32,000 nt of DNA from Candidatus Methanoperedens sp. (GTDB lineage Archaea > Halobacteriota > Methanosarcinia > Methanosarcinales > Methanoperedenaceae). The position numbers and the translations under genes are program-made. Location of the stretch: assembly GCA_027460535.1 (NCBI GenBank), contig JAPZAR010000009.1:47819-79818 (forward strand). Direction: 5' to 3'. Each line of letters opens with the position of its first letter. Positions within the stretch are counted from its first letter, which is position 1. Shown in pieces: positions 14,045 through 30,498 of this stretch. The notes under the pieces were generated by a model. That model did not search any database. It was not told the origin of the DNA and worked only from the letters and a program-made list of their open reading frames with translations.

Positions 14045-16786
14045 TCATTCTTTTTCTCCTTTTTCATACCCCGAGCCCCGATGGATTATCTCTCTGGCTT
14101 TATCATAAGACTTTCTTGCTTCCTCGTATTCCCCTAATTTATAAAGATCAAAACCTTTGTTATACCAGGCACTGGCATATTCAGGAGTTATCTCTATAGC
14201 TCTATCATAAGCCTTCATTGCCTCTTCGTATTTCCCACTGCTTTGAAGGGATTGGCCTTTGTTATACCAATCATCGGCAGATTCAGGAGTTATCTCTATA
14301 GTTTTTTCATAAACCTTTATCGCCTTTTTGTATTTCCTACTACCATGAAGGGCAAGAACGATGACTATCAAGGCAATTAGAATATATCCCCATGGAGGGA
14401 ATTTTGATCCAATTGTGTTTTTAGGAATTGGTACAGTGATTCTCTCTGCAGATCTAATCTGTATTTGAAGTTCCTGACTTTTCGTGCTGATCTTTCTACC
14501 TTGGGTGTCGAATTCATAGTAATCAGCAGTCGCAGATGGGAGTTTGAAGGGCAGTGTTGAACCTATTTTAACAGCATAGTTTAAACTCACTTTCTCGTTT
14601 GCCTCCAAAGGTCTTTCAAGAGTTGTATTCCCGCTGACCAGGGTCACATTATCTGGCAGCAGGTCATTGATAATCACTTTTGTGGGTGTACTTCCAGTGT
14701 TTTCAGCGATTACTGTTACGATCACAGTATCTCCGGGCCTGACAACAGAAACATCTGTCTGCTTCGTCAGTACAACCTTTGGCCCAAGCACCACAATCTT
14801 TGGCTGGTTTGATCCTATGTTGTATGATCTATTGTTTATATTGAACTCGGCAGTTGCCACCGGGAATACGATGCCCACGTTGTTTGGCTCCAGAGGTCTG
14901 ACATCATAGTGGTATTTCCATTCCCCATTGGCAGGAATATCAACCACCCAGTGCAGCGATTGGTTGCCGAGGAGCTTAAAACCGTCCGGGAGAGAATCCG
15001 TAATACTCACATTTTTAAGATCGTACGTTCCATTGTTTTTTACTGATAATGAAATGCTGGTATAATCCTTCAAATACATCGTGTCAACCGTACTCTTCCT
15101 TATGGAGAGCCCCTCTTGAGGCTCACCAAAGAGTATTGAGTTCAAAAAAATATACGCTTTGCCAAGCATTTCATATAATGTGTTAAGAGGTTCATAGATT
15201 AGCGGTGTTATAGCAGGCACAGGTGTCGCTACTGTGATTTGAGGAGTCGGTGCCGTGGGAATTATCATTACAGTAGCTGCAGGTATTGTGATTTGTGGAG
15301 TAGGTATAGGAGTTTTCTTTGCGGATTTAAGCTGTATTTCAACTTCCTGACTGCTCGTGCTTATCTTTCTACCTATGGATCCGAGTTCATAGTATTCAGC
15401 ATTTGCAGCAGGAAGGGTGATGCTCTCTTTGGAATCGATTCTAAGGATGTAGCTGAAACTAATATTCATTGTTGCTTCCAGAAATCCCCCACTCGATGTG
15501 CTGCCTCTGACCAGGGTCACATCATCTGGCAACGTGTCCATGATATTCAACCTTGTAGGAGTACTTCCTGTATTTTCTGCAACCACAGTTACAGTCACAG
15601 CATCGCCAGGGTTGAACTCTGAAACATCCGCATGCTTCGTGAGGATAATCTTTGGTCCGTATACAACAATCATCGGCTGGTTTGATCGCACGCTATAAAA
15701 TTCATTATTTACTACGAACTCAGCGGTGGCTGCGGGAAAGATGATACCCTCCTTGTTCGACTCAAGAGGTCTTACCAGATAGTGGTAGTCCCATTCCCCA
15801 TTGACAGGAATATCAACAACCCAGTGCAGCGATTGGTTGCCGAGGAGTTTAAAACCGTTTGGAAGAGAATCTGTTATATTTACATTTCTAGCATCGAGCC
15901 TTCCATTGTTTTTTACAGATAATGAAACGATGTTGTAGTCCTTTAAATACATCTTATTAACCGTGGTTTTGCTTACGGAGAGCATAACAGGAACCTCGGC
16001 TGCCATTGAAATGCTCTTTATGGACGTTGCCGTATATGGAATATTCATAACATCGTATCCGCTGACGTTTGCTGATATGCTGTGCATTTCCAGTTCTGGG
16101 AGAATGGGTGATGCAAATGTAATGGTCTCGGTGGCGGATTCCCCTATTTTAATTCTATCATAGTGATATTTTAGATTTCCCCTGTTTATTGGAAGTTCTG
16201 TGTCAATGACCATATCAACATTAACCGCATCAGCCGAGCCTGTATTTTCTAAGTTTACAGTTGCAACAATGTTTGTGGTGTATGAGGATACGTATTTATC
16301 TTTGTCCGTCTGTATCGATACCGCAAGGCTTGGAATACCTCTTGGATCCAATTCAATTACCGCCCACGGAGCATAACTTTCAAAAATCCACTCTTGTGCA
16401 TTTTGAGCAGGGAGTCCGGTTGCTGTAACTCTCAAATTACCATCAGGAACGATATACGATTCCGTCAATCGGAGGGCAGCAGTGCCTATGTAACTGCCAT
16501 TTTTTGAAATATCCAGCTCCACGAAGGGTTCAACATGTTCTTCAGGCCCTGGTCTGTATTTTGCCGATTCCACAGGTGCCGGAAATCCTATCACTTTTAC
16601 TGAATACCCATTATATGTGAGCATTTCGCCACGAATGAGCTTGTTTGACACACCCCCTGTCCACTGCAGTTGTGAACTATCAGATGTTTGGGCAAAGCCG
16701 AACCCTGAGAAAATCAAGGCTATTATGATACCACAAATCAAGCCTTTTTTCCTCTTGTCGAGAGTGGATATATTTTTAAATAACAT
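14045..16786 (-). CDS. Surface protein with DUF11/CARDB-type repeat domains, a C-terminal TM helix and a cytoplasmic TPR tail
   Basis: The ORF track start at 16813 is a GTG. ATG 16786 gives a signal peptide (MLFKNISTLDKRKKGLICGIIIALIFSGFGFAQT). The DUF11-like signature recurs (VKNNGRLDARNVNITDSLPNGF; PGDAVTVTVVAENTGSTPTRLNIMDTLPDDV). A ~219-aa two-domain module is duplicated. The C-terminus has a Pro/Thr linker, a TM helix (WGYILIALIVIVLALHG), RKYKK and near-consensus TPRs. Confidence 0.8.
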   Translation of the reverse strand: MLFKNISTLDKRKKGLICGIIIALIFSGFGFAQTSDSSQLQWTGGVSNKLIRGEMLTYNGYSVKVIGFPAPVESAKYRPGPEEHVEPFVELDISKNGSYIGTAALRLTESYIVPDGNLRVTATGLPAQNAQEWIFESYAPWAVIELDPRGIPSLAVSIQTDKDKYVSSYTTNIVATVNLENTGSADAVNVDMVIDTELPINRGNLKYHYDRIKIGESATETITFASPILPELEMHSISANVSGYDVMNIPYTATSIKSISMAAEVPVMLSVSKTTVNKMYLKDYNIVSLSVKNNGRLDARNVNITDSLPNGFKLLGNQSLHWVVDIPVNGEWDYHYLVRPLESNKEGIIFPAATAEFVVNNEFYSVRSNQPMIVVYGPKIILTKHADVSEFNPGDAVTVTVVAENTGSTPTRLNIMDTLPDDVTLVRGSTSSGGFLEATMNISFSYILRIDSKESITLPAANAEYYELGSIGRKISTSSQEVEIQLKSAKKTPIPTPQITIPAATVMIIPTAPTPQITVATPVPAITPLIYEPLNTLYEMLGKAYIFLNSILFGEPQEGLSIRKSTVDTMYLKDYTSISLSVKNNGTYDLKNVSITDSLPDGFKLLGNQSLHWVVDIPANGEWKYHYDVRPLEPNNVGIVFPVATAEFNINNRSYNIGSNQPKIVVLGPKVVLTKQTDVSVVRPGDTVIVTVIAENTGSTPTKVIINDLLPDNVTLVSGNTTLERPLEANEKVSLNYAVKIGSTLPFKLPSATADYYEFDTQGRKISTKSQELQIQIRSAERITVPIPKNTIGSKFPPWGYILIALIVIVLALHGSRKYKKAIKVYEKTIEITPESADDWYNKGQSLQSSGKYEEAMKAYDRAIEITPEYASAWYNKGFDLYKLGEYEEARKSYDKAREIIHRGSGYEKGEKE
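14078..14395 (-). other. TM helix plus ~95-aa TPR tail module
   Basis: WGYILIALIVIVLALHG-SRKYKK-AIKVYEKTIEITPESADDWYNKGQSLQSSGKYEEAMKAYDRAIEITPEYASAWYNKGFDLYKLGEYEEARKSYDKAREIIHR. The basic residues right after the TM helix imply a cytoplasmic tail. Confidence 0.8.
14453..15985 (-). repeat. Internal duplication: two ~219-aa modules offset by 873 bp
   Basis: aa 277-497 (15323..15985) and aa 569-787 (14453..15109) of the track protein align colinearly. Examples: MYLKDYNIVSLSVKNNG... vs MYLKDYTSISLSVKNNG...; LHWVVDIPVNGEW vs LHWVVDIPANGEW; GRKISTSSQEVEIQLKSA vs GRKISTKSQELQIQIRSA. Confidence 0.85.
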
Positions 16787-18052: not shown

Positions 18053-19648
18053 ATGAAAGGAAATTATAAAATTGGAATTGCAGTTTTACTGTTGGTTACG
18101 ATAACAGCAGCGTCGGCAGCTACACAGATCGGAGACAATATAACTGTTGCGAATAACGTCACAGCACAGAACTTTATAGGTAATTTAAATTGGGCATATT
18201 TATTAGGAATTCCTACAGATTTTCCGAACTCGACAGCGGTAACAGCAAACAATACAGCGAATGGTGCTGTTCAAACTTCGCTTTATAATGGCGACTTCCC
18301 GAATACCTCTTTGCCGAATTATCTTTTGATTTCAACATACGGTACCGACTTCCCGAACTTGACAGCAGTAACAGCAAACAATACAGCGAATGGTGCTGTT
18401 CAGACTTCGCTTTATAATGGCGACTTCCCGAATACCTCTTTGCCGAATTATCTTTTGATTTCAACATACGGTACCGACTTCCCGAACTCGACAGCAGTAA
18501 CAGCAAACAACACAGCGAATGGTGCTGTTCAGACTTCGCTTTATAATGGCGACTTCCCGAATACTTCCTTGCCGAATTATCTTTTGATTTCAACATACGG
18601 TACCGACTTCCCGAACTCGACAGCAGTAACAGCAAACAACACAGCGAATGGTGCTGTTCAAACTTCGCTTTATAATGGCAACTTCCCGAATACCTCTTTG
18701 CCTAATTATCTTTTGATTTCAACATACGGTACCGACTTCCCGAACTCGACAGCAGTAACAGCAAACAACACAGCGAATGGTGCTGTTCAAACTTCACTTT
18801 ATAATGGCAACTTCCCGAACAGTTCTGTCCTGACAAAAGAACCGGCAATCACAGGCTCAACCTCAAATACTTTTTGGAATGGATTAAAACAATTTGTTAC
18901 TCTATCAAGCGGATTGATTACTGATTTTTCAGCAGCGGTAAGAACAAATATATCAGCAACAGGTAATGCTACTTACAACTCAGCCACCGGAGTGATTGAT
19001 GCTCTTACCAATATAACAGCAGTAAGGACTTCAATATCAGCAACAGGCAATGCTACTTATAATTCATCGACTGGTGTAATTGACGCATTAACTAACATCA
19101 CTGCAGTAAGGAATTCAATATCATCAAGCAGCGGGCTTGTATCTTATAATTCTTCGACAGGAGTAGTATCGGATAGCATCAATTCATCTGCAAATCTGTA
19201 TAATATAAATGGCAGTAATGTAACAAGTGGCAAAGTAAATAGTCAATTCCTTAATATAACCAATATTACGTCGTATTTATCTAGTAATAAAGTTACACCA
19301 AACAACAACGTATACGTTGTCGGGCCTACCATAAATCTTCAAGCCGGCACATGGTTTCTTAATGGAGGAGTTACAGTATCCGAAGTCGGAGGTGCTGGTT
19401 CACTAAAAGTAGTAACGTGTAATATGTCACAAGGTGGCACAAATGTAATATCTTCAGGTGAAGCTGCTAGCAATGCCGTACCAGCGGTAATCCAATTGTC
19501 CGGGCTTATATCCCTTAGTTCACCAGCTACCGCACAGATTGCTTGTGCCGGTGGTGCTCAAAATGCAACTATCTATGCGGCTGTACCTGATAATGCTGGA
19601 GGAGCAGGAAATACTGCAAGCTATATTACAGCGCTAAGGATCGGATAA
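18053..19648 (+). CDS. Secreted repeat protein, tail-fibre/adhesin-like
   Basis: cGGAGGA Shine-Dalgarno 7 nt upstream. Signal peptide MKGNYKIGIAVLLLVTITAASAATQ. The protein has 4.7 x 43-aa repeats and 3 x 28-aa repeats (AVRTxISATGNATYNSxTGVIDALTNIT). The C-terminal ~130 aa is Gly/Ala/Ser-rich, probably a beta domain, and ends ASYITALRIG. Confidence 0.75.
   Translation: MKGNYKIGIAVLLLVTITAASAATQIGDNITVANNVTAQNFIGNLNWAYLLGIPTDFPNSTAVTANNTANGAVQTSLYNGDFPNTSLPNYLLISTYGTDFPNLTAVTANNTANGAVQTSLYNGDFPNTSLPNYLLISTYGTDFPNSTAVTANNTANGAVQTSLYNGDFPNTSLPNYLLISTYGTDFPNSTAVTANNTANGAVQTSLYNGNFPNTSLPNYLLISTYGTDFPNSTAVTANNTANGAVQTSLYNGNFPNSSVLTKEPAITGSTSNTFWNGLKQFVTLSSGLITDFSAAVRTNISATGNATYNSATGVIDALTNITAVRTSISATGNATYNSSTGVIDALTNITAVRNSISSSSGLVSYNSSTGVVSDSINSSANLYNINGSNVTSGKVNSQFLNITNITSYLSSNKVTPNNNVYVVGPTINLQAGTWFLNGGVTVSEVGGAGSLKVVTCNMSQGGTNVISSGEAASNAVPAVIQLSGLISLSSPATAQIACAGGAQNATIYAAVPDNAGGAGNTASYITALRIG
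18221..18825 (+). repeat. In-frame tandem repeat, 129-bp unit x ~4.7
   Basis: Unit starts (ttcccgaact) fall at 18221, 18350, 18479, 18608 and 18737, an exact 129-bp spacing. Only a few substitutions separate the units. The encoded unit is FPNSTAVTANNTANGAVQTSLYNG(D/N)FPNTSLPNYLLISTYGTD. Confidence 0.9.
18935..19186 (+). repeat. In-frame tandem repeat, 84-bp unit x 3
   Basis: Units begin at 18935, 19019 and 19103 (gc[g/a]gtaag[a/g]...). The third copy is more divergent. Confidence 0.85.
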
Positions 19649-19689
19649 GGTTTGGTCTTTGATGGATAAACTTGTCATATAAAAATAAT

Positions 19690-22600
19690 ATGAGACTGTT
19701 TATTTATTTGATAGGCATTGCATTGATAATCGGAGTAGCTTCGGCTGACGTCAGCATTGTAGACGACACTCTTTTCAACCTCGGCAATGGTGCCTTCATT
19801 AAAGTCCTTGCAGTCCAGAACTCGACAAACATCACCGTATACAGTTCAACAAATTCACCGGCATCCACGCTCCAGTTTTACATCAACGGCACAGCGATAA
19901 GATTCACCGCAAACACCAATAAAACGCTCTCAAATATTTCTTATGATAATGCGACCGATGTCGTAACATACACCGGGAATGGCACTGATGGCTATCTCAA
20001 TGTATCGACGCGAATGCAAGTATCATCGGTAAATTATGGATTGAAGGTTGACGGAGTTGTTGACCAAAGGCAACAATCCAATGCTACCGGGTGGGTGACA
20101 TTCAATTACACAGGATGGAGCCCGAATCTGCATGTCTTTGAAATATCGAATCGAACATATATTCCTCCAGCACCCACGAACCTGATCAATGTCAGCGATA
20201 ACTTTTATGTGAACCACAGCTGGCAGGCAGGATCAGGAAACATAACGGATTCGTACAATGTAAGCGTCAATGGTACCTGGCATAATGGTGCAAACAGTAC
20301 CTATTACAATAATTCAGGTTTAGCTCCACACGGCTGGAGCAACATCTCGGTATATTCATACAACAGTTCAGGTACAGGCACGATGAACACCACGGCTGTA
20401 TCCCAGAACACCCGGGTCCCGGATAATCCAGTAACGATAACTAATATTTCAGATTCATATAATCTCAATGACAGTGAGACTCTTTACATAGCTGCGAATT
20501 GCACTGACATAGACGGCGACACATGCATTTTTAATAGGAATTTCACTCAAGGGACATTCGATTCATCTACGGGAATACTCAACTGGCAGGCAGGATACGG
20601 AAATTATAGCTGGCAGATTAACGTCACTGATGGGTTTGGTTCAGTTTCCAGGAAGAATTTCACAGTTGCGGTAAACGACATCCACCCCCCATCGCAGGTA
20701 ACTAATTTTCATAACTCTACCATCCCAACTGCGGATTCAGTCAATGTTGCATGGAACGCAAGCAATGACGGTGCAAACGGCTCTGGGATTAAGGAATACA
20801 GAATTGAGCGAACCAATGAATCGTTCAATTACATGACCATTGATAGGCCCATAATAAATGCAACTGGAATAGCATCGGGGTACGAGAACGATTCTTACTG
20901 GTATACTTTCAAGACCAATGAACCGGTTAACTGTCAGGGATGCCACGTCAATGGAAGGACGAGAATAGGCAATTTCTGGACCAAATACAATACAACGTAC
21001 CTCTACGTGATGGTGCATGCACCGGATAACGACACAAATATAAGCGATGATAACATAAGTCTTGCATTCGACGTGAACAGGGATAGTGGCACAGCTCCGC
21101 AGCCGGATGACCAGATGTATGAAATTACTGAGCAGAACAACCTTCTCCGCTATACAGGCAACGGCACAGATTGGGTCGCAAACAGTACCAGTGCTGTAAG
21201 TGCCGTAGCGGGTGCAGGTTCAAAAGCGCCAGTATATGAGATAAGAATTCCACTATCTGAAATAGGCAGCCCTTCTAATAACACGCCTATAAATTTCTTA
21301 TTTGAGAACGTATGTACCGGCAGCGGTGATTTTATAGAGAGGCACACATATTTCCCGAAAAACCCAAACGCCAGCGAAAAGGATCCAAGTTCGTGGGGAT
21401 TGATAACATTCAGGAGCCTCACGGATTATGTTCAGATAGCCAATCCATCAGGAACTTCTTATATGATTGCGGATCTAAAGGATGGTTTCAGGTATGACTT
21501 CACAGCTAAGGCCGTGGATAATGTCGGCAATACAGGTCAGCGTTCAGACCCATTGATTATTCAGACTGCGGGAGATCTCGGTTACAATATCTCAGGGTAC
21601 GTTTTTAATTACCTTGGAAATCCAATACCAAATGTTCGTGTCCAGACGCCCAAAGACTATATCGTAAGTTCGCATTCAAATGGCGATTATTTCTTAGAAG
21701 AGCTGATTAATTTTACTTATGATGTTACTGCAAGCAGCGGAGTTTACAGCAGCGATATCACACAAGTTACAGTAAATGGCGCTGATGTTCATAATGTCAA
21801 TATCACAATTCCGCATATTACAGTAAACGCCACAGACTTGGTCACTGCATGCGGGAATTTCTATTGCAACTCAACATGGACTGCTGGAGGTAACACTACA
21901 TCGTTTAATATAAGCCAAAATGAAACCTGGTATAATGGCACTACCAATAATTATTTTAACGTCTCGATCAGCCCGCATGAATACAGCAATATCACAGTGT
22001 CTGGTTACAATGACTATACGACAGCTCTTAGTATTGGAAGTGTAACGCAGAACACTTCAATCCAGAACAATCCTGTTACAATAGGCAACATATCAGATAA
22101 CTATTCATTGATCGAAGGGCAAACCCTCATCATATATCCAAATTCAACCGATGCGGACAGTGACACTCCGACGTTTGCCAGGAATTTCACGAACGGTACG
22201 TTCTACACGAATAACGGCACAATGCTCTGGACGACTACGGGCAGCGATATAGGCATTCATTCCTGGCAGATAAACGTGACTGATGGGTATGGTTCGGTTT
22301 CCTCTGCAAATTTCACGGTAACCGTGAATTCATTCGAAGTGAGCCTGACAAATATATCTGCTTTAACAAATACTACTTTTGCAGGAACAAATGCGATCTA
22401 TATTCTCAATCTGACCAATAACGGTACAGCAGGAGCGGATACGTATAATCTCACGATCGATAATACAAACGGAGCATCCGCTTCCTTGAACGTCTCCCCG
22501 GATTTTGTGTATGTGCCTCAAGCCGGAAGCGTAATATTCGCACTCAATGTAACCAATGCATCGTCAGGAATATTCCGTGTCAATGTCACAGCAACCTCGG

Positions 22601-25600
22601 TGAATAACTCAAATAAGATTGCATACATCAATACCACAACGACTGTGAATGCTGTCAGGGCAGTCAGCCTGAGTGTGGATCCTACTGCAAGGACCACATC
22701 AGCTGGAACCAATGCAACCTACGTACTCAACATCACCAACAACGGCAGCGACCCGGATACCTATACTCTCCTTGTAACCAATGCCAGCAGTGCCTCCGTA
22801 GCATTGCTGAACATCTCCTCCCCAACATCCACGCTCGGTTCAGGTCAGAGCCTGATCCTCGCCCTTAACGTCACCAATACCTCTTCAGGCACATTCCTTG
22901 TGAATGTAACCGCAACCTCAAGCAGCGATGCCACGAAATTCGCCTATGTCAATACCACAACGACTGTGAATGCGGTCAGGGCAGTTAACCTGACCGTAAA
23001 TCCAAGCGAACAGGCAACATCCACAGGCACCAATGCCACCTATCTCCTCAACCTCACCAATAACGGTACTGATGCAGATACCTATACTCTCGTCGTTACT
23101 AACGCAAACAATGCATCAACCGCTTTGTTGAATACCTCATTGAGCCAGAGCCTGAATGCAGGGCAGAGCCTGATATTGGCTCTTAACGTGACCAATTCAT
23201 CAGCAGGTTCAGGTACTTTCAATGTAAATGTAAGTGCCACCTCAAGCGATCCTACTAAGTTCGCGTTCGTCAATACCACAACGACTGTGAATGCGGTCAG
23301 GGCAGCCAACCTGACCGTAAATCCAGGCGAACAGGCAACATCCACAGGCACCAATGCCACCTATATCCTCAACCTCACCAATAACGGTACTGATGCAGAT
23401 ACCTATACTCTCCTTGTAACCAATTCCAGCAGTGCCTCCGTAGCATTGCTGAACATCTCCTCCCCAACATCAACGCTCAGTCCGGGTCAGAGCCTGATCT
23501 TCGCCCTTAACGTCACCAATGCCTCTTTGGGCACATTCCTTGTGAATGTAACCGCAACGTCAAGCAACGATGCCACGAAATTCGGCTATGTCAATACCAC
23601 CACGACTGTGAATGCGGTCAGGGCAGTCAGCCTTACAGTAAATACAGCCGCCCAGACAACATCTGCCGGAACCAATGCCACCTACGTACTCAACCTCACC
23701 AATAACGGTACTGATGCAGATACCTATACTCTCCTTGTAACCAATTCCAGCAGTGCCTCCGTAGCATTGCTGAACATCTCCTCCCCAACATCCATGCTCA
23801 GTCCGGGTCAGAGCCTGATCTTCGCCCTTAACGTGACCAATACCTCTTCGGGCACGTTCAAGGTGAATGTAACCGCAACCTCAAGCAGCGATGCCACGAA
23901 ATTCGCCTATGTCAATACCACAACGACTGTGAATGCTGTCAGGGCTGTTAGTTTAAGCATAGATGCTCCTTCAAAGGACACCGATGCCGGCGTGAATGCC
24001 ACCTACGTGCTCAATCTTACCAATAACGGCAGCGACCCGGATTCCTATGCCTTGCTGGTAACCAACGCGAGCAATGCCTCTGTAGCGGCTCTCAATATCT
24101 CCTCGCCCACTTCTACGCTCAGTCCGGGTCAGAGCCTGATCTTCGCCCTTAACGTGACCAATACCTCTTCGGGTACGTTCAAGGTGAATGTAACCGCAAT
24201 CTCGCAGGGCAACAATTCGAAGTTCGCCAGCGTGAATACCACAACTGTGATGGGTGCTATCCGGGGTGTCAGTTTAAGCATAGACGCTCCTTCAAAGAGC
24301 ACCGACGCCGGCGTGAATGCCACCTACGTGCTCAATCTTACCAATAACGGTACTGATGCGGATACCTATACTCTCCTTGTAACCAATTCCAGCAGTGCTT
24401 CCGTAGCATTGCTGAACATCTCCTCCCCAACATCCACGCTCGGTTCAGGTCAGAGCCTGATCTTCGCCCTTAACGTCACCAATACTTCTTCGGGTAACTT
24501 CAGCGTCAATGTAACCGCAACCTCAAGCATCAATGCCACAAAATTCGCCTATGTCAATACCACAACGGCTGTGAATGCGGTCAGGGCAGTCAGCCTGACC
24601 ATCAATACAACTGCCCAGACAACATCAGCCGGAACCAATGCCACCTATATCCTCAACCTCACCAATAACGGTACTGATGCAGATACCTATACTCTCATCG
24701 TTACTAACGCAAACAGTGCCTCAACCGCTCTTCTGAATACCTCATTGAGCCAGAGCCTGAATGCAGGACAGAGTGTTATATTCGCCCTTAACGTCACCAA
24801 TACCTCCTCAGGCACATTCCTCGTGAATGTAACCGCAACCTCAGGCAACGATGCCACAAAATTCGCCTATGTCAATACCACCACGATTGTGAATGCAGTC
24901 CCGACTTACATACCTCCGACCCCGACAGATTTATCGAGCACTCAGGGTAATTTCTGGATAAACTACACATGGAGTGCAGGGAGCGGGAGCGTAACGGATT
25001 CATACAATGTAAGCGTCAACGGCACATGGCATAACGGAACAAACAGTACCTATTACAATAATTCAGGTTTAGCTCCACATGGCTGGAGCAACATCTCGGT
25101 CTATTCCTTCAACAATTCAGGCACGGGCACGCTGAACAGCACTGCCGTATCCCAGAACACCCGGGTGCCGAACAACGTACCTGTCCAGGCATCGATCGGC
25201 AACAAGAACGTGTACGAGAACGAGACATTGAGCTTCACGGTCTCTGCAACAGACGCAGACGGCGATACCATGACCTTCGGCACCAATGCATCAAAAGGCA
25301 GCCTCAATACAACAACAGGCTTATTCACCTGGACGCCCACGTTCGGGGACTCAGGGATTTACGTCTGGTACTTCAATTCAAGCGACGGGTACGAAGGTAT
25401 AGCGACTGAAACCATAACAGTGACCGTGAACAATATCCCATTAACAATCACCTCGCGTTCACCCGGCACCGACCCGACCACAATCGTAGATACAGGTCAG
25501 ACCTTCACTGTAAACCTGAACAGGAGTGCAAACGTCACCTGGTACATCAACGGCATATCTGTCCAGGGAAACACCAGCATAACCTCGGCAAGCTATACCA

Positions 25601-28600
25601 ACCTAACTTCCGGTGTGGGTGTGCATAACCTAACAGCAATGGTATCCGATGCTTTCGATACCACTCCAACCATGTGGAACTGGACTGTAACTGCATTCCC
25701 GACCCACATGCCCCCGACCCCTTCCAATCTTACCAGCAGCACAGGATATTACTTCGTGAACCACAGCTGGCAGGCAGGAGACGGGAACGTAACGGACAGC
25801 TATAACGTCAGCGTAAACGGCACATGGCAAAACGACACGACCGGTACCTATTACAACAATTCAGGGTTGTCTGCACACGGTTGGAGCAACATCTCGGTCT
25901 ATTCCTTCAACACTTCAGGCACAGGAGCCCTTAACGAAACCCCGGTAACCGCAAATACCCAGGTTCCCAACAACGTTCCTGTCCTCACACCAATCGTAGA
26001 TAAAGTCGTGACTGCAGGCATCTGGCTGAATTTCACAGTCGTTGCGACGGATGCAGACGGCGATCCTTTAACCTACGGCACCAATGCCACCAGGGGAGCA
26101 CTCGATCCTGCATCAGGTAACTTTAACTGGTCAACCACAGGCAGCGATGTGGGAACCTATGTGTGGTACTTCAGCTCAAGTGATACCTACGGCGGTGTTG
26201 CATCAGGAACAATAACAGTGACCGTGACTGCTGCTCCCACGTATCTCCCGCCAAGCCCGGTGAACCTTGCCAGCACCACAGGGAATTTCTATGTCAACCA
26301 TACCTGGAATGCAGGCTCAGGAAACGTAACCCACAGCTATAAAGTGAGTGTGAATGGTACATTTCAAAATATTGGGTTGAACTGGAGTGCTGGTATCCCA
26401 GTGGGAGTTGGTATTCTTGCATTGACTTATGCTGGAAACGGAACTGTTATCGCTGGTGATTACTCTAATGGTAATATTTATCGTTCAACAGACTATGGTC
26501 AAACCTGGGGTGCTGGTATTTCAGTTGGAAGTAGTATTGGTGGACTAACCTATACTGGCAACGGGGTTATTATCGCTGCTGATAGCAATAACGGTAATAT
26601 TTATCGTTCGACAGACTATGGTCAAACCTGGAGTGCTGGTATTCCAGTCGGGAGTGCTATTTTTGAATTGACGTATGCTGAAAACGGAACAGTTATCGCT
26701 GCTGATAGCAATAACGGTAATATTTATCGTTCAACCGACTATGGTCAAACCTGGAGTGCTGGTATTCCAGTTGGGAGTGTTTATTATGCATCGACTTATG
26801 CCGGAAACGGAACTGTTATCGCTGGTGATTATGCCAATGGTAATATTTATCGTTCCACAGACTATGGTCAAACCTGGAGTGCTGGTATTCCAGTCGGGAG
26901 TAGTATTGGTGTAATAACCTACGCTGGAAACGGAATTGTATTCGCTGCTGATAGCAATAACGGTAATATCTATCGTTCAACCGATTATGGTCAAACCTGG
27001 AGTGCTGGTATTCCAGTCGGGAGTGTTATTTTTGCATTGACTTATGCAGGCAACGGAATTGTTATCGCTGGTGAGGACAGTGACGGTGATATTTATCGTT
27101 CAACCGACTATGGTCAAACCTGGAGTGCTGATATTCTAGTCGGGAGTGGTATTGATGGGATAATCTATATTGGAAATGGAATTGTTATCGCTGGTGATTA
27201 CAAAAACGGTAATATTTATCGTTCGGATCCTACCTATACTACGCATACCTATTACAACAATTCAGGGTTGTCTGCACACGGATGGAGCAACATCTCGGTC
27301 TATTCCTTCAACAATTCAGGCACAGGAACCCTTAACGAAACCCCGGTAACCGCAAACACCCAGGTTCCCAACAATCCGGTCTCGATAGGGAATGTATCGA
27401 GCAGCTACACATTAACCGCGGGTGACATGTTATCGATATATCCGACTTCGAGCGATCTGGACGGCGACACTCCCACGTTTGCCAGTAATTTCACCAACGG
27501 TACGTTCTACGCGAATAACGGCACACTGTTCTGGACGACAACGGGCAGCGATGAAGGCATCCATTCCTGGCAGATAAACGTGACAGACGGGTACGGGTCG
27601 GTCTCCTTTGCAAATTTCACGGTAACCGTGACCGCAGTACTTGCACCCAACATCACTTCCTGGGGCAATAACAAGACCAACAATGAGAGCTTGACTTTAA
27701 CCCTGAACAATAGCGAAGGCATAAGGTTCAATGCCACTGCAAACCAGAGTATAACCACATGGACATGGTTCCAGGACGACGTTAACCAGAACAATAACTA
27801 TGACAATTTCTCAACCAGCCTCACTGGCGGAAATCATACCATTAAAGTCAATGCAACCAATGGTAACGGGGTAAGCAATACTATTACCTGGATTGTTACG
27901 ATAACTCCAACGCCAACCATCTCACCGGTAATCACAGGCTTTGCTCCTTCTTCGCCCGTAATTGATATCGTGGGTGCAACTAGAACCTTCAACATCACCG
28001 TTAACCAGACCGTGAACGTAACCTGGTATGTCAACGGAACGCAGGCTCAGACAAATACGAGTGTGACTAATGCAGGTTATACCAACGCCAGTGCAGGACT
28101 TGGCGTATGGAACGTAACAGCCACTGCAGCCAATTCCAATGGTGTCGTATCACAGGTATGGATATGGAATGTGACAGCAGCACCGAGTGGAGCACCTAAC
28201 ATAACCAGTTTTGCTCCTTCTTCGCCCGTAAATGATATCGTGGGTGTAACTAGAATATTCAACATCACCGTTAACCAGACCGTGAACGTAACCTGGTACA
28301 TCAACGGAACGCAGGCTCAGACCAATATCAGTGTGACCGATGCCAGTTATACCAACACCAGTGCAGTCCTTGGAGTATGGAACATATCAGCAAATGCAGC
28401 CAATTCCAATGGCGTTGTTTCACAGGCGTGGATCTGGAACGTGACAGCAGCCCCGACAGGAACACCTAATATAACCAGTTTTGCCCCGGCTTCGCCTGTA
28501 AACGATATCGTGGGTGCAACTAGAACATTCAACATCATCGTTAACCAGATCGTGAATATAACATGGTACATCAACGGAACTCAGGTTCAGACAAGTATGA

Positions 28601-29715
28601 GTGTGACCGGTGCCAGTTATACTAACACCAGTGCAGTCCTTGGAGTATGGAACATAACAGCCACTGCAACCAATTCCAATGGTGTTGTATCACAGGTATG
28701 GATGTGGAACGTGGCAGCAGCACCAACCCCGGCACCCACTCGGAAATCTGTTACCGGCGGCGGTGGGGGTGGCGGAGGTGGAGAAGGCGCAAAATCCTCG
28801 GAACCGCCCATAAACATTGAGTCGTTTGAGCTTGCGGAACAATACTTAGGAGCAAATACTCCTGCCTCTTATATATTCACTACACCAAACCTTGTAATTT
28901 CTGAAGTGTTAATAACTCCTGCAAGGAACTTTGGAACTACAAGCATAAGAATAGAAACGCTCAAAAATTTATCAAACAGAGAAGGGATGACACCACCCCC
29001 AGGAATTGTTTATAAATATGTTAATATCTGGGTCGGTGCAGGGGATATCGATAGTCCAGACAGCATCATAGACGCATTCATAGGGTTTGAAGTCGATCGC
29101 GGCTGGCTTGCGCAGAATAACCTTGAGGAGAATAATATAAGACTTCTTAGATGGGACGGAAGCAAGTGGAACTCGCTGGATACTCAGCCAACGAGCAGTG
29201 ATGAAACATTCGCATATTATTATTCAAGAACCAACGCATTCTCGCCTTTTGCAATAGTTGCCCTTCCCCTTTATCCATCTGCCACAGCTCAGGCAGGCGA
29301 AACTCCAATAACAGAGGCTCCAATGCAAGAGCTAATAAAACAGTTGGCGGTAGAACGGGTATCCTGGCTGTGGATGTATGCATTAATTGCTTTGATACTT
29401 ATCAGCCTTGCCCTTTATAAATTAAGTAAATACCAAAAAAAGGCAATTAAAGTTTATGAAGCTGTGGCGATAAAGCCAGAGAATGCCGATGCATGGTATG
29501 GTAAAGGCGCCGAGCTTCAGGAGATAGGGAAATACGAAGAGGCAATAAAATCTTATGATAAGGCTATAGAGATAAATCCAGAATATTCCAATGCTTGGAA
29601 TAACAAAGGTTTTGCCCTCTATGAATTAGGGAAATACGAAGAGGCAGCAAAGGCATATGATAAAGCAAGAGAGATAATCCATCGAAGCAGGCAATCGGAT
29701 GAGGACTCTTTATGA
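19690..29715 (+). CDS. Giant (3341-aa) modular surface glycoprotein with a PGF-pre-PGF domain, TM helix and cytoplasmic TPR tail
   Basis: The ORF track start at 19672 is a TTG. ATG 19690 gives the signal peptide MRLFIYLIGIALIIGVASA/DV. Modules, read by eye, in order: five FN3-like plus cadherin-like/He_PIG pairs (acidic DxDxDGD motifs); an FN3 with a CBM9-like insert; a CarboxypepD_reg-like domain; eight 107-aa CARDB/NEW3-like repeats; a seven-unit Asp-box propeller; five NVTWYING-type Ig-like modules; a G9 linker; a PGF-pre-PGF domain; TM; TPRs. Confidence 0.9.
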   Translation: MRLFIYLIGIALIIGVASADVSIVDDTLFNLGNGAFIKVLAVQNSTNITVYSSTNSPASTLQFYINGTAIRFTANTNKTLSNISYDNATDVVTYTGNGTDGYLNVSTRMQVSSVNYGLKVDGVVDQRQQSNATGWVTFNYTGWSPNLHVFEISNRTYIPPAPTNLINVSDNFYVNHSWQAGSGNITDSYNVSVNGTWHNGANSTYYNNSGLAPHGWSNISVYSYNSSGTGTMNTTAVSQNTRVPDNPVTITNISDSYNLNDSETLYIAANCTDIDGDTCIFNRNFTQGTFDSSTGILNWQAGYGNYSWQINVTDGFGSVSRKNFTVAVNDIHPPSQVTNFHNSTIPTADSVNVAWNASNDGANGSGIKEYRIERTNESFNYMTIDRPIINATGIASGYENDSYWYTFKTNEPVNCQGCHVNGRTRIGNFWTKYNTTYLYVMVHAPDNDTNISDDNISLAFDVNRDSGTAPQPDDQMYEITEQNNLLRYTGNGTDWVANSTSAVSAVAGAGSKAPVYEIRIPLSEIGSPSNNTPINFLFENVCTGSGDFIERHTYFPKNPNASEKDPSSWGLITFRSLTDYVQIANPSGTSYMIADLKDGFRYDFTAKAVDNVGNTGQRSDPLIIQTAGDLGYNISGYVFNYLGNPIPNVRVQTPKDYIVSSHSNGDYFLEELINFTYDVTASSGVYSSDITQVTVNGADVHNVNITIPHITVNATDLVTACGNFYCNSTWTAGGNTTSFNISQNETWYNGTTNNYFNVSISPHEYSNITVSGYNDYTTALSIGSVTQNTSIQNNPVTIGNISDNYSLIEGQTLIIYPNSTDADSDTPTFARNFTNGTFYTNNGTMLWTTTGSDIGIHSWQINVTDGYGSVSSANFTVTVNSFEVSLTNISALTNTTFAGTNAIYILNLTNNGTAGADTYNLTIDNTNGASASLNVSPDFVYVPQAGSVIFALNVTNASSGIFRVNVTATSVNNSNKIAYINTTTTVNAVRAVSLSVDPTARTTSAGTNATYVLNITNNGSDPDTYTLLVTNASSASVALLNISSPTSTLGSGQSLILALNVTNTSSGTFLVNVTATSSSDATKFAYVNTTTTVNAVRAVNLTVNPSEQATSTGTNATYLLNLTNNGTDADTYTLVVTNANNASTALLNTSLSQSLNAGQSLILALNVTNSSAGSGTFNVNVSATSSDPTKFAFVNTTTTVNAVRAANLTVNPGEQATSTGTNATYILNLTNNGTDADTYTLLVTNSSSASVALLNISSPTSTLSPGQSLIFALNVTNASLGTFLVNVTATSSNDATKFGYVNTTTTVNAVRAVSLTVNTAAQTTSAGTNATYVLNLTNNGTDADTYTLLVTNSSSASVALLNISSPTSMLSPGQSLIFALNVTNTSSGTFKVNVTATSSSDATKFAYVNTTTTVNAVRAVSLSIDAPSKDTDAGVNATYVLNLTNNGSDPDSYALLVTNASNASVAALNISSPTSTLSPGQSLIFALNVTNTSSGTFKVNVTAISQGNNSKFASVNTTTVMGAIRGVSLSIDAPSKSTDAGVNATYVLNLTNNGTDADTYTLLVTNSSSASVALLNISSPTSTLGSGQSLIFALNVTNTSSGNFSVNVTATSSINATKFAYVNTTTAVNAVRAVSLTINTTAQTTSAGTNATYILNLTNNGTDADTYTLIVTNANSASTALLNTSLSQSLNAGQSVIFALNVTNTSSGTFLVNVTATSGNDATKFAYVNTTTIVNAVPTYIPPTPTDLSSTQGNFWINYTWSAGSGSVTDSYNVSVNGTWHNGTNSTYYNNSGLAPHGWSNISVYSFNNSGTGTLNSTAVSQNTRVPNNVPVQASIGNKNVYENETLSFTVSATDADGDTMTFGTNASKGSLNTTTGLFTWTPTFGDSGIYVWYFNSSDGYEGIATETITVTVNNIPLTITSRSPGTDPTTIVDTGQTFTVNLNRSANVTWYINGISVQGNTSITSASYTNLTSGVGVHNLTAMVSDAFDTTPTMWNWTVTAFPTHMPPTPSNLTSSTGYYFVNHSWQAGDGNVTDSYNVSVNGTWQNDTTGTYYNNSGLSAHGWSNISVYSFNTSGTGALNETPVTANTQVPNNVPVLTPIVDKVVTAGIWLNFTVVATDADGDPLTYGTNATRGALDPASGNFNWSTTGSDVGTYVWYFSSSDTYGGVASGTITVTVTAAPTYLPPSPVNLASTTGNFYVNHTWNAGSGNVTHSYKVSVNGTFQNIGLNWSAGIPVGVGILALTYAGNGTVIAGDYSNGNIYRSTDYGQTWGAGISVGSSIGGLTYTGNGVIIAADSNNGNIYRSTDYGQTWSAGIPVGSAIFELTYAENGTVIAADSNNGNIYRSTDYGQTWSAGIPVGSVYYASTYAGNGTVIAGDYANGNIYRSTDYGQTWSAGIPVGSSIGVITYAGNGIVFAADSNNGNIYRSTDYGQTWSAGIPVGSVIFALTYAGNGIVIAGEDSDGDIYRSTDYGQTWSADILVGSGIDGIIYIGNGIVIAGDYKNGNIYRSDPTYTTHTYYNNSGLSAHGWSNISVYSFNNSGTGTLNETPVTANTQVPNNPVSIGNVSSSYTLTAGDMLSIYPTSSDLDGDTPTFASNFTNGTFYANNGTLFWTTTGSDEGIHSWQINVTDGYGSVSFANFTVTVTAVLAPNITSWGNNKTNNESLTLTLNNSEGIRFNATANQSITTWTWFQDDVNQNNNYDNFSTSLTGGNHTIKVNATNGNGVSNTITWIVTITPTPTISPVITGFAPSSPVIDIVGATRTFNITVNQTVNVTWYVNGTQAQTNTSVTNAGYTNASAGLGVWNVTATAANSNGVVSQVWIWNVTAAPSGAPNITSFAPSSPVNDIVGVTRIFNITVNQTVNVTWYINGTQAQTNISVTDASYTNTSAVLGVWNISANAANSNGVVSQAWIWNVTAAPTGTPNITSFAPASPVNDIVGATRTFNIIVNQIVNITWYINGTQVQTSMSVTGASYTNTSAVLGVWNITATATNSNGVVSQVWMWNVAAAPTPAPTRKSVTGGGGGGGGGEGAKSSEPPINIESFELAEQYLGANTPASYIFTTPNLVISEVLITPARNFGTTSIRIETLKNLSNREGMTPPPGIVYKYVNIWVGAGDIDSPDSIIDAFIGFEVDRGWLAQNNLEENNIRLLRWDGSKWNSLDTQPTSSDETFAYYYSRTNAFSPFAIVALPLYPSATAQAGETPITEAPMQELIKQLAVERVSWLWMYALIALILISLALYKLSKYQKKAIKVYEAVAIKPENADAWYGKGAELQEIGKYEEAIKSYDKAIEINPEYSNAWNNKGFALYELGKYEEAAKAYDKAREIIHRSRQSDEDSL
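20932..20946 (+). other. CXXCH motif (CQGCH), candidate covalent haem c site
   Basis: tgt cag gga tgc cac is in frame. It uses two of the seven Cys I counted by eye in the 3341-aa protein. It lies ~25 aa before the CBM9/DOMON-like core (TYLYVMVHAPDND). The motif is certain; the function is speculative. Confidence 0.35.
22342..24900 (+). repeat. In-frame tandem array, 8 x ~321 bp (107-108 aa CARDB/NEW3-like domain)
   Basis: Unit starts fall at 22342, 22666, 22987, 23308, 23629, 23950, 24271 and 24592. The conserved core is GTNATY(V/I/L)LNLTNNGTDADTYTL...ALNVTNTSSGTF.VNVTATS...KFAYVNTTTTVNAVRAV. Confidence 0.95.
26380..27230 (+). repeat. In-frame tandem array, 7 x 123 bp (41-aa Asp-box/BNR blades)
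   Basis: ggt(aat/gat)at(t/c)tatcgttc recurs at 26470, 26593, 26716, 26839, 26962, 27085 and 27208, an exact 123-bp period. The unit is SAGIPVGS.I..LTYAGNG.VIA.D..NGNIYRSTDYGQTW, and STDYGQTW fits S-x-D-x-G-x-T-W. Confidence 0.95.
27925..28734 (+). repeat. In-frame tandem array, 3 x 270 bp (90-aa Ig-like module)
   Basis: Units start at 27925, 28195 and 28465. The unit is P(N/V)IT.FAP.SPV.DIVGATRTFNITVNQTVNVTWYINGTQAQTN.SVT.A.YTNTSA.LGVWN.TA.A.NSNGVVSQVW.WNVTAAP. More divergent copies lie at ~25435 and ~27640. Confidence 0.9.
28798..29265 (+). other. PGF-pre-PGF domain (TIGR04213-like) of the giant protein
   Basis: SEPPINIESFE...VYKYVNIWVGAG...IGFEVDRGWLAQNNLEENNIRLLRWDGSKWNSLDT...AFSPFAIVA is colinear with 10501..10950 in the PGF-CTERM protein. 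Both domains are preceded by a poly-Gly linker. Confidence 0.75.
29365..29690 (+). other. TM helix plus TPR tail module
   Basis: WLWMYALIALILISLALY-KLSKYQKK-AIKVYEAVAIKPENADAWYGKGAELQEIGKYEEAIKSYDKAIEINPEYSNAWNNKGFALYELGKYEEAAKAYDKAREIIHR. By my hand alignment it is ~70% identical to the tail of the 14045..16786 protein. Confidence 0.8.
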
Positions 29716-30164: not shown

Positions 30165-30498
30165 CATAACATTCAATGACCTGTACATAGGATAAATCGT
30201 AATGATGTCATGGCTGGGATAAGGTAAGTCAAATTGATTCTTTGATAGGAGAGTCTATCGACTTTCAGTAATTAATCCACCACATATTGTTGCGATTATA
30301 AAAGATAGTAGGATGGGAGGAATATAAAAATGAACTTAAAAATGGTAATGGTATTGTTGACTCTGGCTTTTATCCAGGGAGCGTCAGCACAACATACCCA
30401 AAACGCTGCGTGCGAATCTGCAGGTTGTCATAAGTACCCATCGGTATTTCTAAAAAATACCGTAAGTATACAGGGTATGTAACAATCAGGAGGTTATC

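Follow-up and report, generated by a model that had tools for sequence, protein, structure and literature searches.

A candidate covalent haem site in a CBM9/DOMON-like domain nested within giant surface proteins of Candidatus Methanoperedens

The 32,000-nucleotide stretch of Candidatus Methanoperedens DNA analysed here (hereafter the window; contig JAPZAR010000009.1, positions 47,819 to 79,818 of the forward strand) carries a gene for a giant surface protein with a single CXXCH sequence, CQGCH, which we propose to be a c-type haem attachment site. The open frame spans 19672..29715 on the + strand and encodes 3347 amino acids (aa) from a TTG at 19672, as read from the list of open reading frames (ORFs) and the translation. 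The ATG at 19690 is the likely true start of the protein, which would then have 3341 aa, the length of the gene as called in assembly GCA_027460495.1 (contig JAPZAT010000041.1). Residue numbers such as Cys421 and His449 follow the TTG numbering of the 3347-aa frame. The motif lies in a cassette of nested domains near the N-terminus:

19690..29715, + strand: giant surface-protein gene, 3341 aa from the ATG at 19690 (ORF list and translation)
20683..20823, + strand: N-terminal half of an fn3 domain (Pfam fn3 profile positions 2-39, 13.9 bits alone)
20824..21432, + strand: CBM9/DOMON-like β-sandwich, residues 385-587, the proposed haem-c domain (Pfam, AlphaFold2, Foldseek)
20932..20946, + strand: CQGCH, the proposed haem-c attachment motif (direct reading TGT CAG GGA TGC CAC)
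21016..21018, + strand: codon of His449 (last residue of YVMVH, followed by APDND), candidate distal axial ligand (column co-variation)
21433..21621, + strand: C-terminal half of the fn3 domain (Pfam fn3 profile positions 47-82, 17.4 bits alone)
21589..21810, + strand: CarboxypepD_reg-like domain, last part of the cassette (Pfam PF13620, 35.2 bits against a cut-off of 32.3)

Reading of the codons places CQGCH at residues 421-425, in frame with the giant ORF, exactly where a preliminary description of this DNA had put it. The same description had spoken of a Cys-poor giant with about seven Cys and of a lone motif, and both statements proved correct. There are exactly 7 Cys in the 3347 residues (0.21%), at positions 277, 285, 421, 424, 548, 727 and 732; the CXXCH at 421-425 is the only one in the protein, and open frames of at least 150 aa across the window contain no other. 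A CXXCH appeared with a frequency of 5e-5 in composition-preserving shuffles of the giant protein (n = 20,000). Chance occurrence was rejected on the basis of this frequency and, above all, of the conservation described below. In its context, 'VNCxxCH', the motif bears a weak resemblance to haem sites in reaction-centre tetrahaem cytochromes and in MtrC domains. In the giant protein a haem adduct would sit on the tryptic peptide that bears the motif, TNEPVNCQGCHVNGR.

Homologues of the domain were collected by searching 1.84 billion representatives exhaustively with HMMER; residues 385-587 served as query, and 73 matches were returned. A word-indexed protein search found no homologue with either a 280-aa domain or a 14-sequence alignment, and a scan with a 4-sequence alignment added 3 genome and 2 metagenome loci. 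These scanned loci all belong to Methanoperedens or are unassigned, viral contigs scanned with the family alignment yielded no locus, and all homologues that have a source name or record title come from Ca. Methanoperedens or Methanoperedenaceae. The 12 closest non-self matches (P0002-P0013) are 38-62% identical to the window domain and all have a haem-type motif at the aligned position. It is CXXCH in P0002-P0008 and P0010-P0012, where XX is TT, DS, TS, AQ, SL, TG, QE, TE, NT and LI, and it is CTNTNCH (CX4CH) in P0013 and CGQPEPCH (CX5CH) in P0009. The genome and metagenome scans contributed CTICH (L005), CANCH (L009) and CGQPxPCH (L007 and L008), so that CX5CH occurs in three homologues. Each homologue has exactly one haem motif, and the only two Cys in the 521 aa of P0008 are those of the motif.

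The preliminary description had named conservation in homologues as a check on its proposal. C-Xn-C-H is found in 17 of 17 distinct homologous domains that keep the loop; the residues between the two Cys vary freely, while the His is invariant. Only one close homologue, P0014, has the loop deleted, and none of 59 more distant CBM9-like matches has a CXXCH. Three further observations concern these sequences. In P0004, P0006, P0007 and L005 (VNCTSCH, VNCSLCH, LNCTGCH and VNCTICH) the Asn that precedes the first Cys creates an N-C-[ST] sequon, which the window protein (VNCQGCH) does not have. A third Cys of the domain, residue 548 (21313-21315, in ENVC), is kept in most members with the haem motif and in a few haem-less CBM9-like domains; its column is Lys in P0008 and P0010, both of which keep CXXCH, and Cys548 would be an unpaired thiol. 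Finally, P0005 and P0010, both from JGI (Joint Genome Institute) records, each lie on a 6081-bp contig that is probably the same one, in which case they would be tandem paralogues of the haem cassette.

Pfam CBM9_1 (PF06452) matches the domain that bears the motif over residues ~407-579, and the 33 bits of this match exceed the cut-off of 23.4. The motif sits at the N-terminal edge of the match, in a loop, and precedes the first residues that align with solved CBM9 structures or with distant CBM9-like domains. The earlier placement of the motif just upstream of a CBM9/DOMON-like core is therefore accurate. The core had also been called an insert, and the flanking sequences confirm this: each fn3 half alone remains below the fn3 cut-off of 25 bits, whereas together, with residues 385-587 deleted, they give a full-length match of 33.7 bits that covers profile positions 2-82 of 84. 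The CBM9-like domain is thus truly nested in fn3. The block common to all homologues is the cassette fn3(N half)-CBM9-fn3(C half)-CarboxypepD_reg, residues 323-710 of the giant protein, which occurs at varying distances from the N-terminus and is combined with differing repeat stalks and C-terminal parts.

To describe the fold, residues 375-600 were modelled without cofactor by AlphaFold2 from a 14-sequence alignment, giving a mean predicted local distance difference test score (pLDDT) of 79 and a predicted template modelling score (pTM) of 0.79. Among the internal segments, the CXXCH loop (between strands 35-40 and 58-65 in model numbering) has the lowest confidence; we would expect a loop that is ordered by a cofactor to be poorly predicted in its absence. 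The top Foldseek matches in the PDB are the CBM9 modules 7nwn, 7nwo and 1i82 (E ~1e-8, template modelling (TM) score 0.6-0.77), followed by a putative carbohydrate-binding protein of Bacteroides, 4jpq. The haem-b subunits EbdC of ethylbenzene dehydrogenase (gamma subunit, 2ivf_C, E 4e-5) and NxrC of Kuenenia nitrite oxidoreductase (7b04_C, E 7e-5) were also found, both with a probability of 1.0 and a TM score of ~0.5; cellobiose dehydrogenase (CDH; 4qi7, E 0.08) and the DOMON domain of dopamine beta-hydroxylase gave weak matches. The matches to CBM9 and to haem-b proteins together show that the fold belongs to the CBM9/DOMON-like superfamily, which has haem-binding members, as the earlier suggestion of a relation to haem domains had anticipated. 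In sequence comparison with the PDB, the single domain gave no match and a profile search gave weak CBM9 matches only.

The sixth ligand of a c-type haem is canonically His or Met. When all matches were aligned to the family profile, one column of the domain, that of His449, followed the motif. His449 ends the strand YLYVMVH and stands just ahead of the conserved PDNDT loop. Of the 17 distinct motif-bearing domains, 15 have His in this column and 2 (P0012 and P0013) have Met; in P0014, which lacks the loop, the residue is Ile. Among 71 CBM9-like domains without CXXCH it is Asp in 20, Glu in 10, His in 2, Met in 1 and various other residues in the remainder. The association between the motif and His/Met449 has a Fisher p of 2e-15, a value uncorrected for shared ancestry. 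A distal Met or His had been put forward as something to look for in the homologues, and such a candidate does exist: this co-variation is the pattern expected of a distal axial ligand. His449 stands eight residues before the equivalent of Trp71 of the 1i82 sugar clamp, which is Ile457 here (our mapping from the hidden Markov model alignment). Both the position of His449 and the presence of Ile457 are compatible with a haem seated in the former sugar cleft.

Four conserved soft or borderline ligands (C, C, H and H/M) would also suit a metal centre. Cys-Cys-His and His/Met449 might then form a mononuclear, non-haem site, for example for Cu(I)/Cu(II) or Fe, with a structural or metal-sensing role; metal loops tolerate a variable Cys spacing (X2, X4, X5), and CBM9 modules bind metal ions. 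We regard such a site as distinctly unlikely, given that the His directly follows the second Cys whatever the spacing, which is a specific haem-c signature, and that an exported CXXCH in a cell with active Ccm is expected to be a Ccm substrate. Exchange of His for Met is moreover typical of haem iron or copper, not of zinc, and the known redox relatives of the fold bind haem.

The two Cys could instead pair in a CXXC disulfide, of structural or redox type, that pins the N-terminal loop to the β-sandwich, the His being incidental or tuning a pKa. This leaves unexplained both the invariance of the following His and the co-varying His/Met449. Secreted proteins often have CXXC disulfides, the model predicts the loop poorly, and the most frequent false positives among exported archaeal CxxCH matches are thioredoxin-like (PMC4429474); the fold seen here, however, is not thioredoxin-like. 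The host is a strict anaerobe of reduced habitats whose surface proteins are otherwise nearly free of Cys, which argues against a reliance on disulfides, and we consider this explanation very improbable. It is the invariance of the His directly after the second Cys, maintained through X2, X4 and X5, that most disfavours the two non-haem readings.

We thus return to haem attachment. CQGCH is probably a genuine c-type haem attachment site, and the domain that bears it a monohaem c-type 'cytochrome-lectin' module; we put the probability of this reading at about 0.65. Most lone CxxCH matches are false positives, and for an archaeal monohaem cytochrome Kletzin et al. ask for an export signal, a conserved motif and a host with ccm genes (PMC4429474). 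The family described here has a predicted export signal and a conserved motif, and host ccm genes, along with many cytochromes c, are reported in published work on the ANME-2d group of anaerobic methanotrophic archaea (ANME). Most ANME genomes encode CcmABCEF, to which ANME-2d adds CcmH homologues (PMC9012536), and CcmABCEF is sufficient for cytochrome c maturation in archaea, as found in Methanosarcina (PMC9084895). ANME also have several CcmF paralogues, possibly for very large apoproteins and for motifs with extra residues between the Cys (PMC9012536). In the M. nitroreducens MPEBLZ assembly, 87 encoded proteins contain one or more CxxCH, and an additional CxxxCH or CxxxxCH motif is present in several of the multihaem cytochromes (PMC4683180).

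In the mechanism that we propose, the giant protein would be exported via Sec, after which Ccm would attach haem to Cys421 and Cys424 as thioether partners, with His425 as the proximal iron ligand. The haem would be seated in the ligand cleft of the CBM9/DOMON-like β-sandwich nested in fn3, and His449, at the end of the next β-hairpin, would serve as distal ligand, replaced by Met in some paralogues. The outcome would be a six-coordinate, low-spin haem of the electron-transfer type in a converted lectin pocket.

Several observations weigh against this proposal. The Pfam models EB_dh (PF09459), DOMON (PF03351) and CDH-cyt (PF16010) gave no match even at E ≤ 10; the domain matches only CBM9_1, a sugar-binding family. 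As a spacing for haem c, CX5CH is unusual. The family has few members and a narrow phylogenetic range, and the conservation counts accordingly represent non-independent events; only one sequence, P0014, shows the motif and His449 lost together. If the glycosylation enzyme AglB uses the N-C-[ST] sequon of several homologues, glycosylation and haem attachment might compete for that tripeptide.

The location of the domain relative to the cell follows from the two ends of the protein:

19690..19749, + strand: N-terminal signal peptide (MRLFIYLIGIALIIGVASAD), the sole strongly hydrophobic N-terminal segment, by reading
28804..29262, + strand: PGF-pre-PGF domain, residues 3039-3191 (NCBIfam TIGR04213, 130 bits against a cut-off of 28)
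29362..29421, + strand: single C-terminal transmembrane helix (about WLWMYALIALILISLALY), read from the translation
29434..29688, + strand: cytoplasmic TPR tail, residues 3255-3339 (Pfam TPR_1, TPR_2, TPR_11, TPR_16 and ANAPC3)

The N-termini of most homologues are similar. PGF-pre-PGF is a hallmark domain of archaeal surface proteins; it is followed here by the transmembrane helix and the TPR tail, with no PGF-CTERM sorting signal. The combination of a signal peptide, PGF-pre-PGF, one transmembrane helix and a cytoplasmic TPR tail places the haem-motif domain outside the cell. More than 2,600 residues separate this domain from the C-terminal membrane anchor; the protein contains many Ig-like repeats, BNR/Asp-box repeats and Big_9 domains, and 223 N-X-S/T sequons. 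The long fibril, heavily glycosylated, therefore presents the cassette at its outer end.

This topology bears on what a haem might do there. It could be present as an extracellular ligand or redox sensor (of NO, O2, sulfide or redox state) or as a surface catalyst of the peroxidase type. A single isolated haem is a poor wire, one transmembrane helix with a cytoplasmic TPR tail could recruit partners, and periplasmic haem-c PAS sensors are known in Geobacter. Other ligand-binding folds that acquired CXXCH became sensors, for example a Cache domain with c-haem (PMC12889525); like the Geobacter PAS domains, it has CXXCH grafted on an extracytoplasmic ligand-binding fold. These sensors differ from the domain considered here in fold and in being membrane-proximal signalling domains, whereas ours is at the far end of a giant fibril. 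Conformational signalling to the transmembrane helix over more than 2,600 residues and dozens of domains seems implausible, the cassette is paired in homologues with quite different C-terminal parts, and the conserved distal His/Met suggests a closed six-coordinate site. A sensor or catalyst is for these reasons unlikely.

The most likely role, by analogy, would instead be that of an exposed one-electron redox site at the contact point of the fibril, where electrons may be exchanged with extracellular multihaem cytochromes, minerals or humics. It is favoured because the nearest working analogues are the haem-b DOMON/cytochrome domains of CDH and CYBDOM. The cytochrome domain of CDH and the DOMON domains of the CYBDOM ferric reductases (PMC10784544) are extracellular single-haem β-sandwiches that shuttle single electrons to external acceptors. 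Both are eukaryotic, with b-type haem and Met/His ligation, and are tethered to an electron source, a flavin or cytochrome b561, which the giant polypeptide itself does not have. Two points count against this functional part of the proposal. A search of the flanks of the window and of 5 homologous loci for multihaem cytochrome genes found none, and the gene neighbourhood therefore provides no argument for electron transfer; furthermore, with more than 2,600 residues between a single haem and the membrane, the polypeptide that holds the haem cannot itself be the wire to the cell.

Among known systems, CBM9 (1i82, 7nwn; PF06452) is the best match in sequence and fold, with the same β-sandwich and an 'LYV..x.D' strand followed by a DxxD loop. 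CBM9 clamps sugar ends between two Trp, Trp71 and Trp175 in TmCBM9-2, however, and has no haem; the Trp71 equivalent is Ile here, the strand ends in His or Met where CBM9-like domains have Asp, Glu or Ile, and the N-terminal loop contains C-Xn-C-H. EbdC (2ivf_C) and NxrC (7b04_C) belong to the same fold superfamily and hold one haem in an extracytoplasmic β-sandwich. Their haems are non-covalent, of b type, with Met/Lys ligation. They are wired into Mo-enzyme complexes, while the domain described here has CXXCH, belongs to a surface fibril and has no Pfam EB_dh match.

Within ANME, the MHC-A/B proteins are likewise very large exported proteins that join haem c with surface-layer domains and are matured by Ccm, possibly with specialised CcmF paralogues (PMC9012536). 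They have tens of packed CXXCH in multihaem folds and can conduct electrons along the protein, whereas the giant protein has exactly one motif in a lectin-type fold, and so falls short of the three or more haem motifs by which ANME multihaem/S-layer fusions are recognised. Closer in setting are an extracellular EBDH-gamma-like haem protein with cohesin domains from the Lilac Borg (bioRxiv 10.1101/2021.07.10.451761) and ANME2D_02958, which combines EB_dh with CxxCH and forms part of Kletzin cluster 68 (PMC4429474 supplement). Both are Methanoperedens-associated and extracellular, with a haem domain of the DOMON superfamily, and have been discussed as joining attachment and electron transfer. 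Their descriptions set them apart as true EB_dh (PF09459); the domain reported here is of CBM9 type, nested in fn3, with CXXCH in its own N-terminal loop.

The integrity of the giant gene and its surroundings deserve mention. An assembly artefact was rejected as the origin of the ORF, as residues 1-1221 are identical in two independent assemblies. Two assemblies differ in the length of the protein, 3341 aa against 3234 aa (P0001), and a 43-aa-repeat protein encoded at 18053-19648 (+) has 531 aa in the window against 488 aa in the loci L001 and L002, a 129-nt offset. These differences in repeat copy number between assemblies, in 18053-19648 and in the giant-gene repeats at ~22400-24900, reflect either strain variation or collapse of repeats during assembly. 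At 26400-27400 (~residues 2250-2570) one copy of the recurring module '...SYNVSVNGTWxN / TxTYYNNSGLxxHGWSNISVYSF...' is interrupted by ~7 consecutive BNR/Asp-box repeats (NGNIYRSTDYGQTW), with the break precisely at the junction of NGTFQN and THTYYNN. Judging from the translation and the Pfam BNR matches, this looks like a second domain-in-domain insertion.

The giant protein (29419-29691, +) and a 922-aa DUF11-repeat protein (14045-14330, -) have the same ending, a transmembrane helix followed by a very similar cytoplasmic tail (KYKKAIKVYE...TPE.A.AWYNKG...), which suggests a shared intracellular docking or sorting module that replaces the PGF-CTERM signal. Neighbouring genes encode glycosyltransferases, radical-SAM enzymes, other surface proteins and MfnA, whose nearest named relatives are 75-80% identical and all from Ca. 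Methanoperedens. The GC content is 43%, and the window is assigned to the chromosome of a member of the Methanoperedenaceae (ANME-2d). Between the giant gene and the next surface-protein gene, a 50-aa ORF at 30330-30482 (+) has a signal-like N-terminus and a CX4CH (MNLKMVMVLLTLAFIQGASA, then QHTQNAACESAGCHK...). Gene calls for this ORF exist on 5 contigs of several assemblies; it could be a tiny secreted monohaem peptide, or could be due to chance.

In the open-access literature we found no account of a c-type haem in a CBM9/DOMON fold, nor of this family of giant proteins. The proposed fn3-nested CBM9 c-type site has probably been overlooked as a recurrent cassette of Methanoperedenaceae surface proteins. 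Multihaem cytochromes are commonly defined by at least 3 CXXCH (PMC10542353), and the usual cytochrome censuses would miss the cassette because it has only one. Should the haem prove to be absent, what remains would be a conserved metal or disulfide loop in a surface protein, of modest interest. If it is present, this would be, as far as the literature shows, the first haem domain of the DOMON/CBM9 superfamily with covalent c-type attachment, and a sugar-binding pocket would have been turned into a cytochrome by a short loop and one ligand.

When Methanoperedens oxidises methane, the electrons go to extracellular acceptors, and work on the exit of these electrons has centred on multihaem cytochromes. 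A more speculative extension, which we hold only tentatively and think rather less likely to be right than wrong, is that lineage-specific 'cytochrome-lectin' heads, each with one covalent haem c in a CBM9/DOMON-type pocket, form the tips of fibrils of ~100 nm (a rough estimate from the number of domains) and act as the contact point of extracellular electron transfer, whether to minerals, humics or partner cells, thereby linking adhesion with redox exchange. A conserved monohaem module of lectin fold at the distal end of giant proteins would be a new component of electron exit in Methanoperedens and a candidate for the place at which adhesion meets electron exchange.

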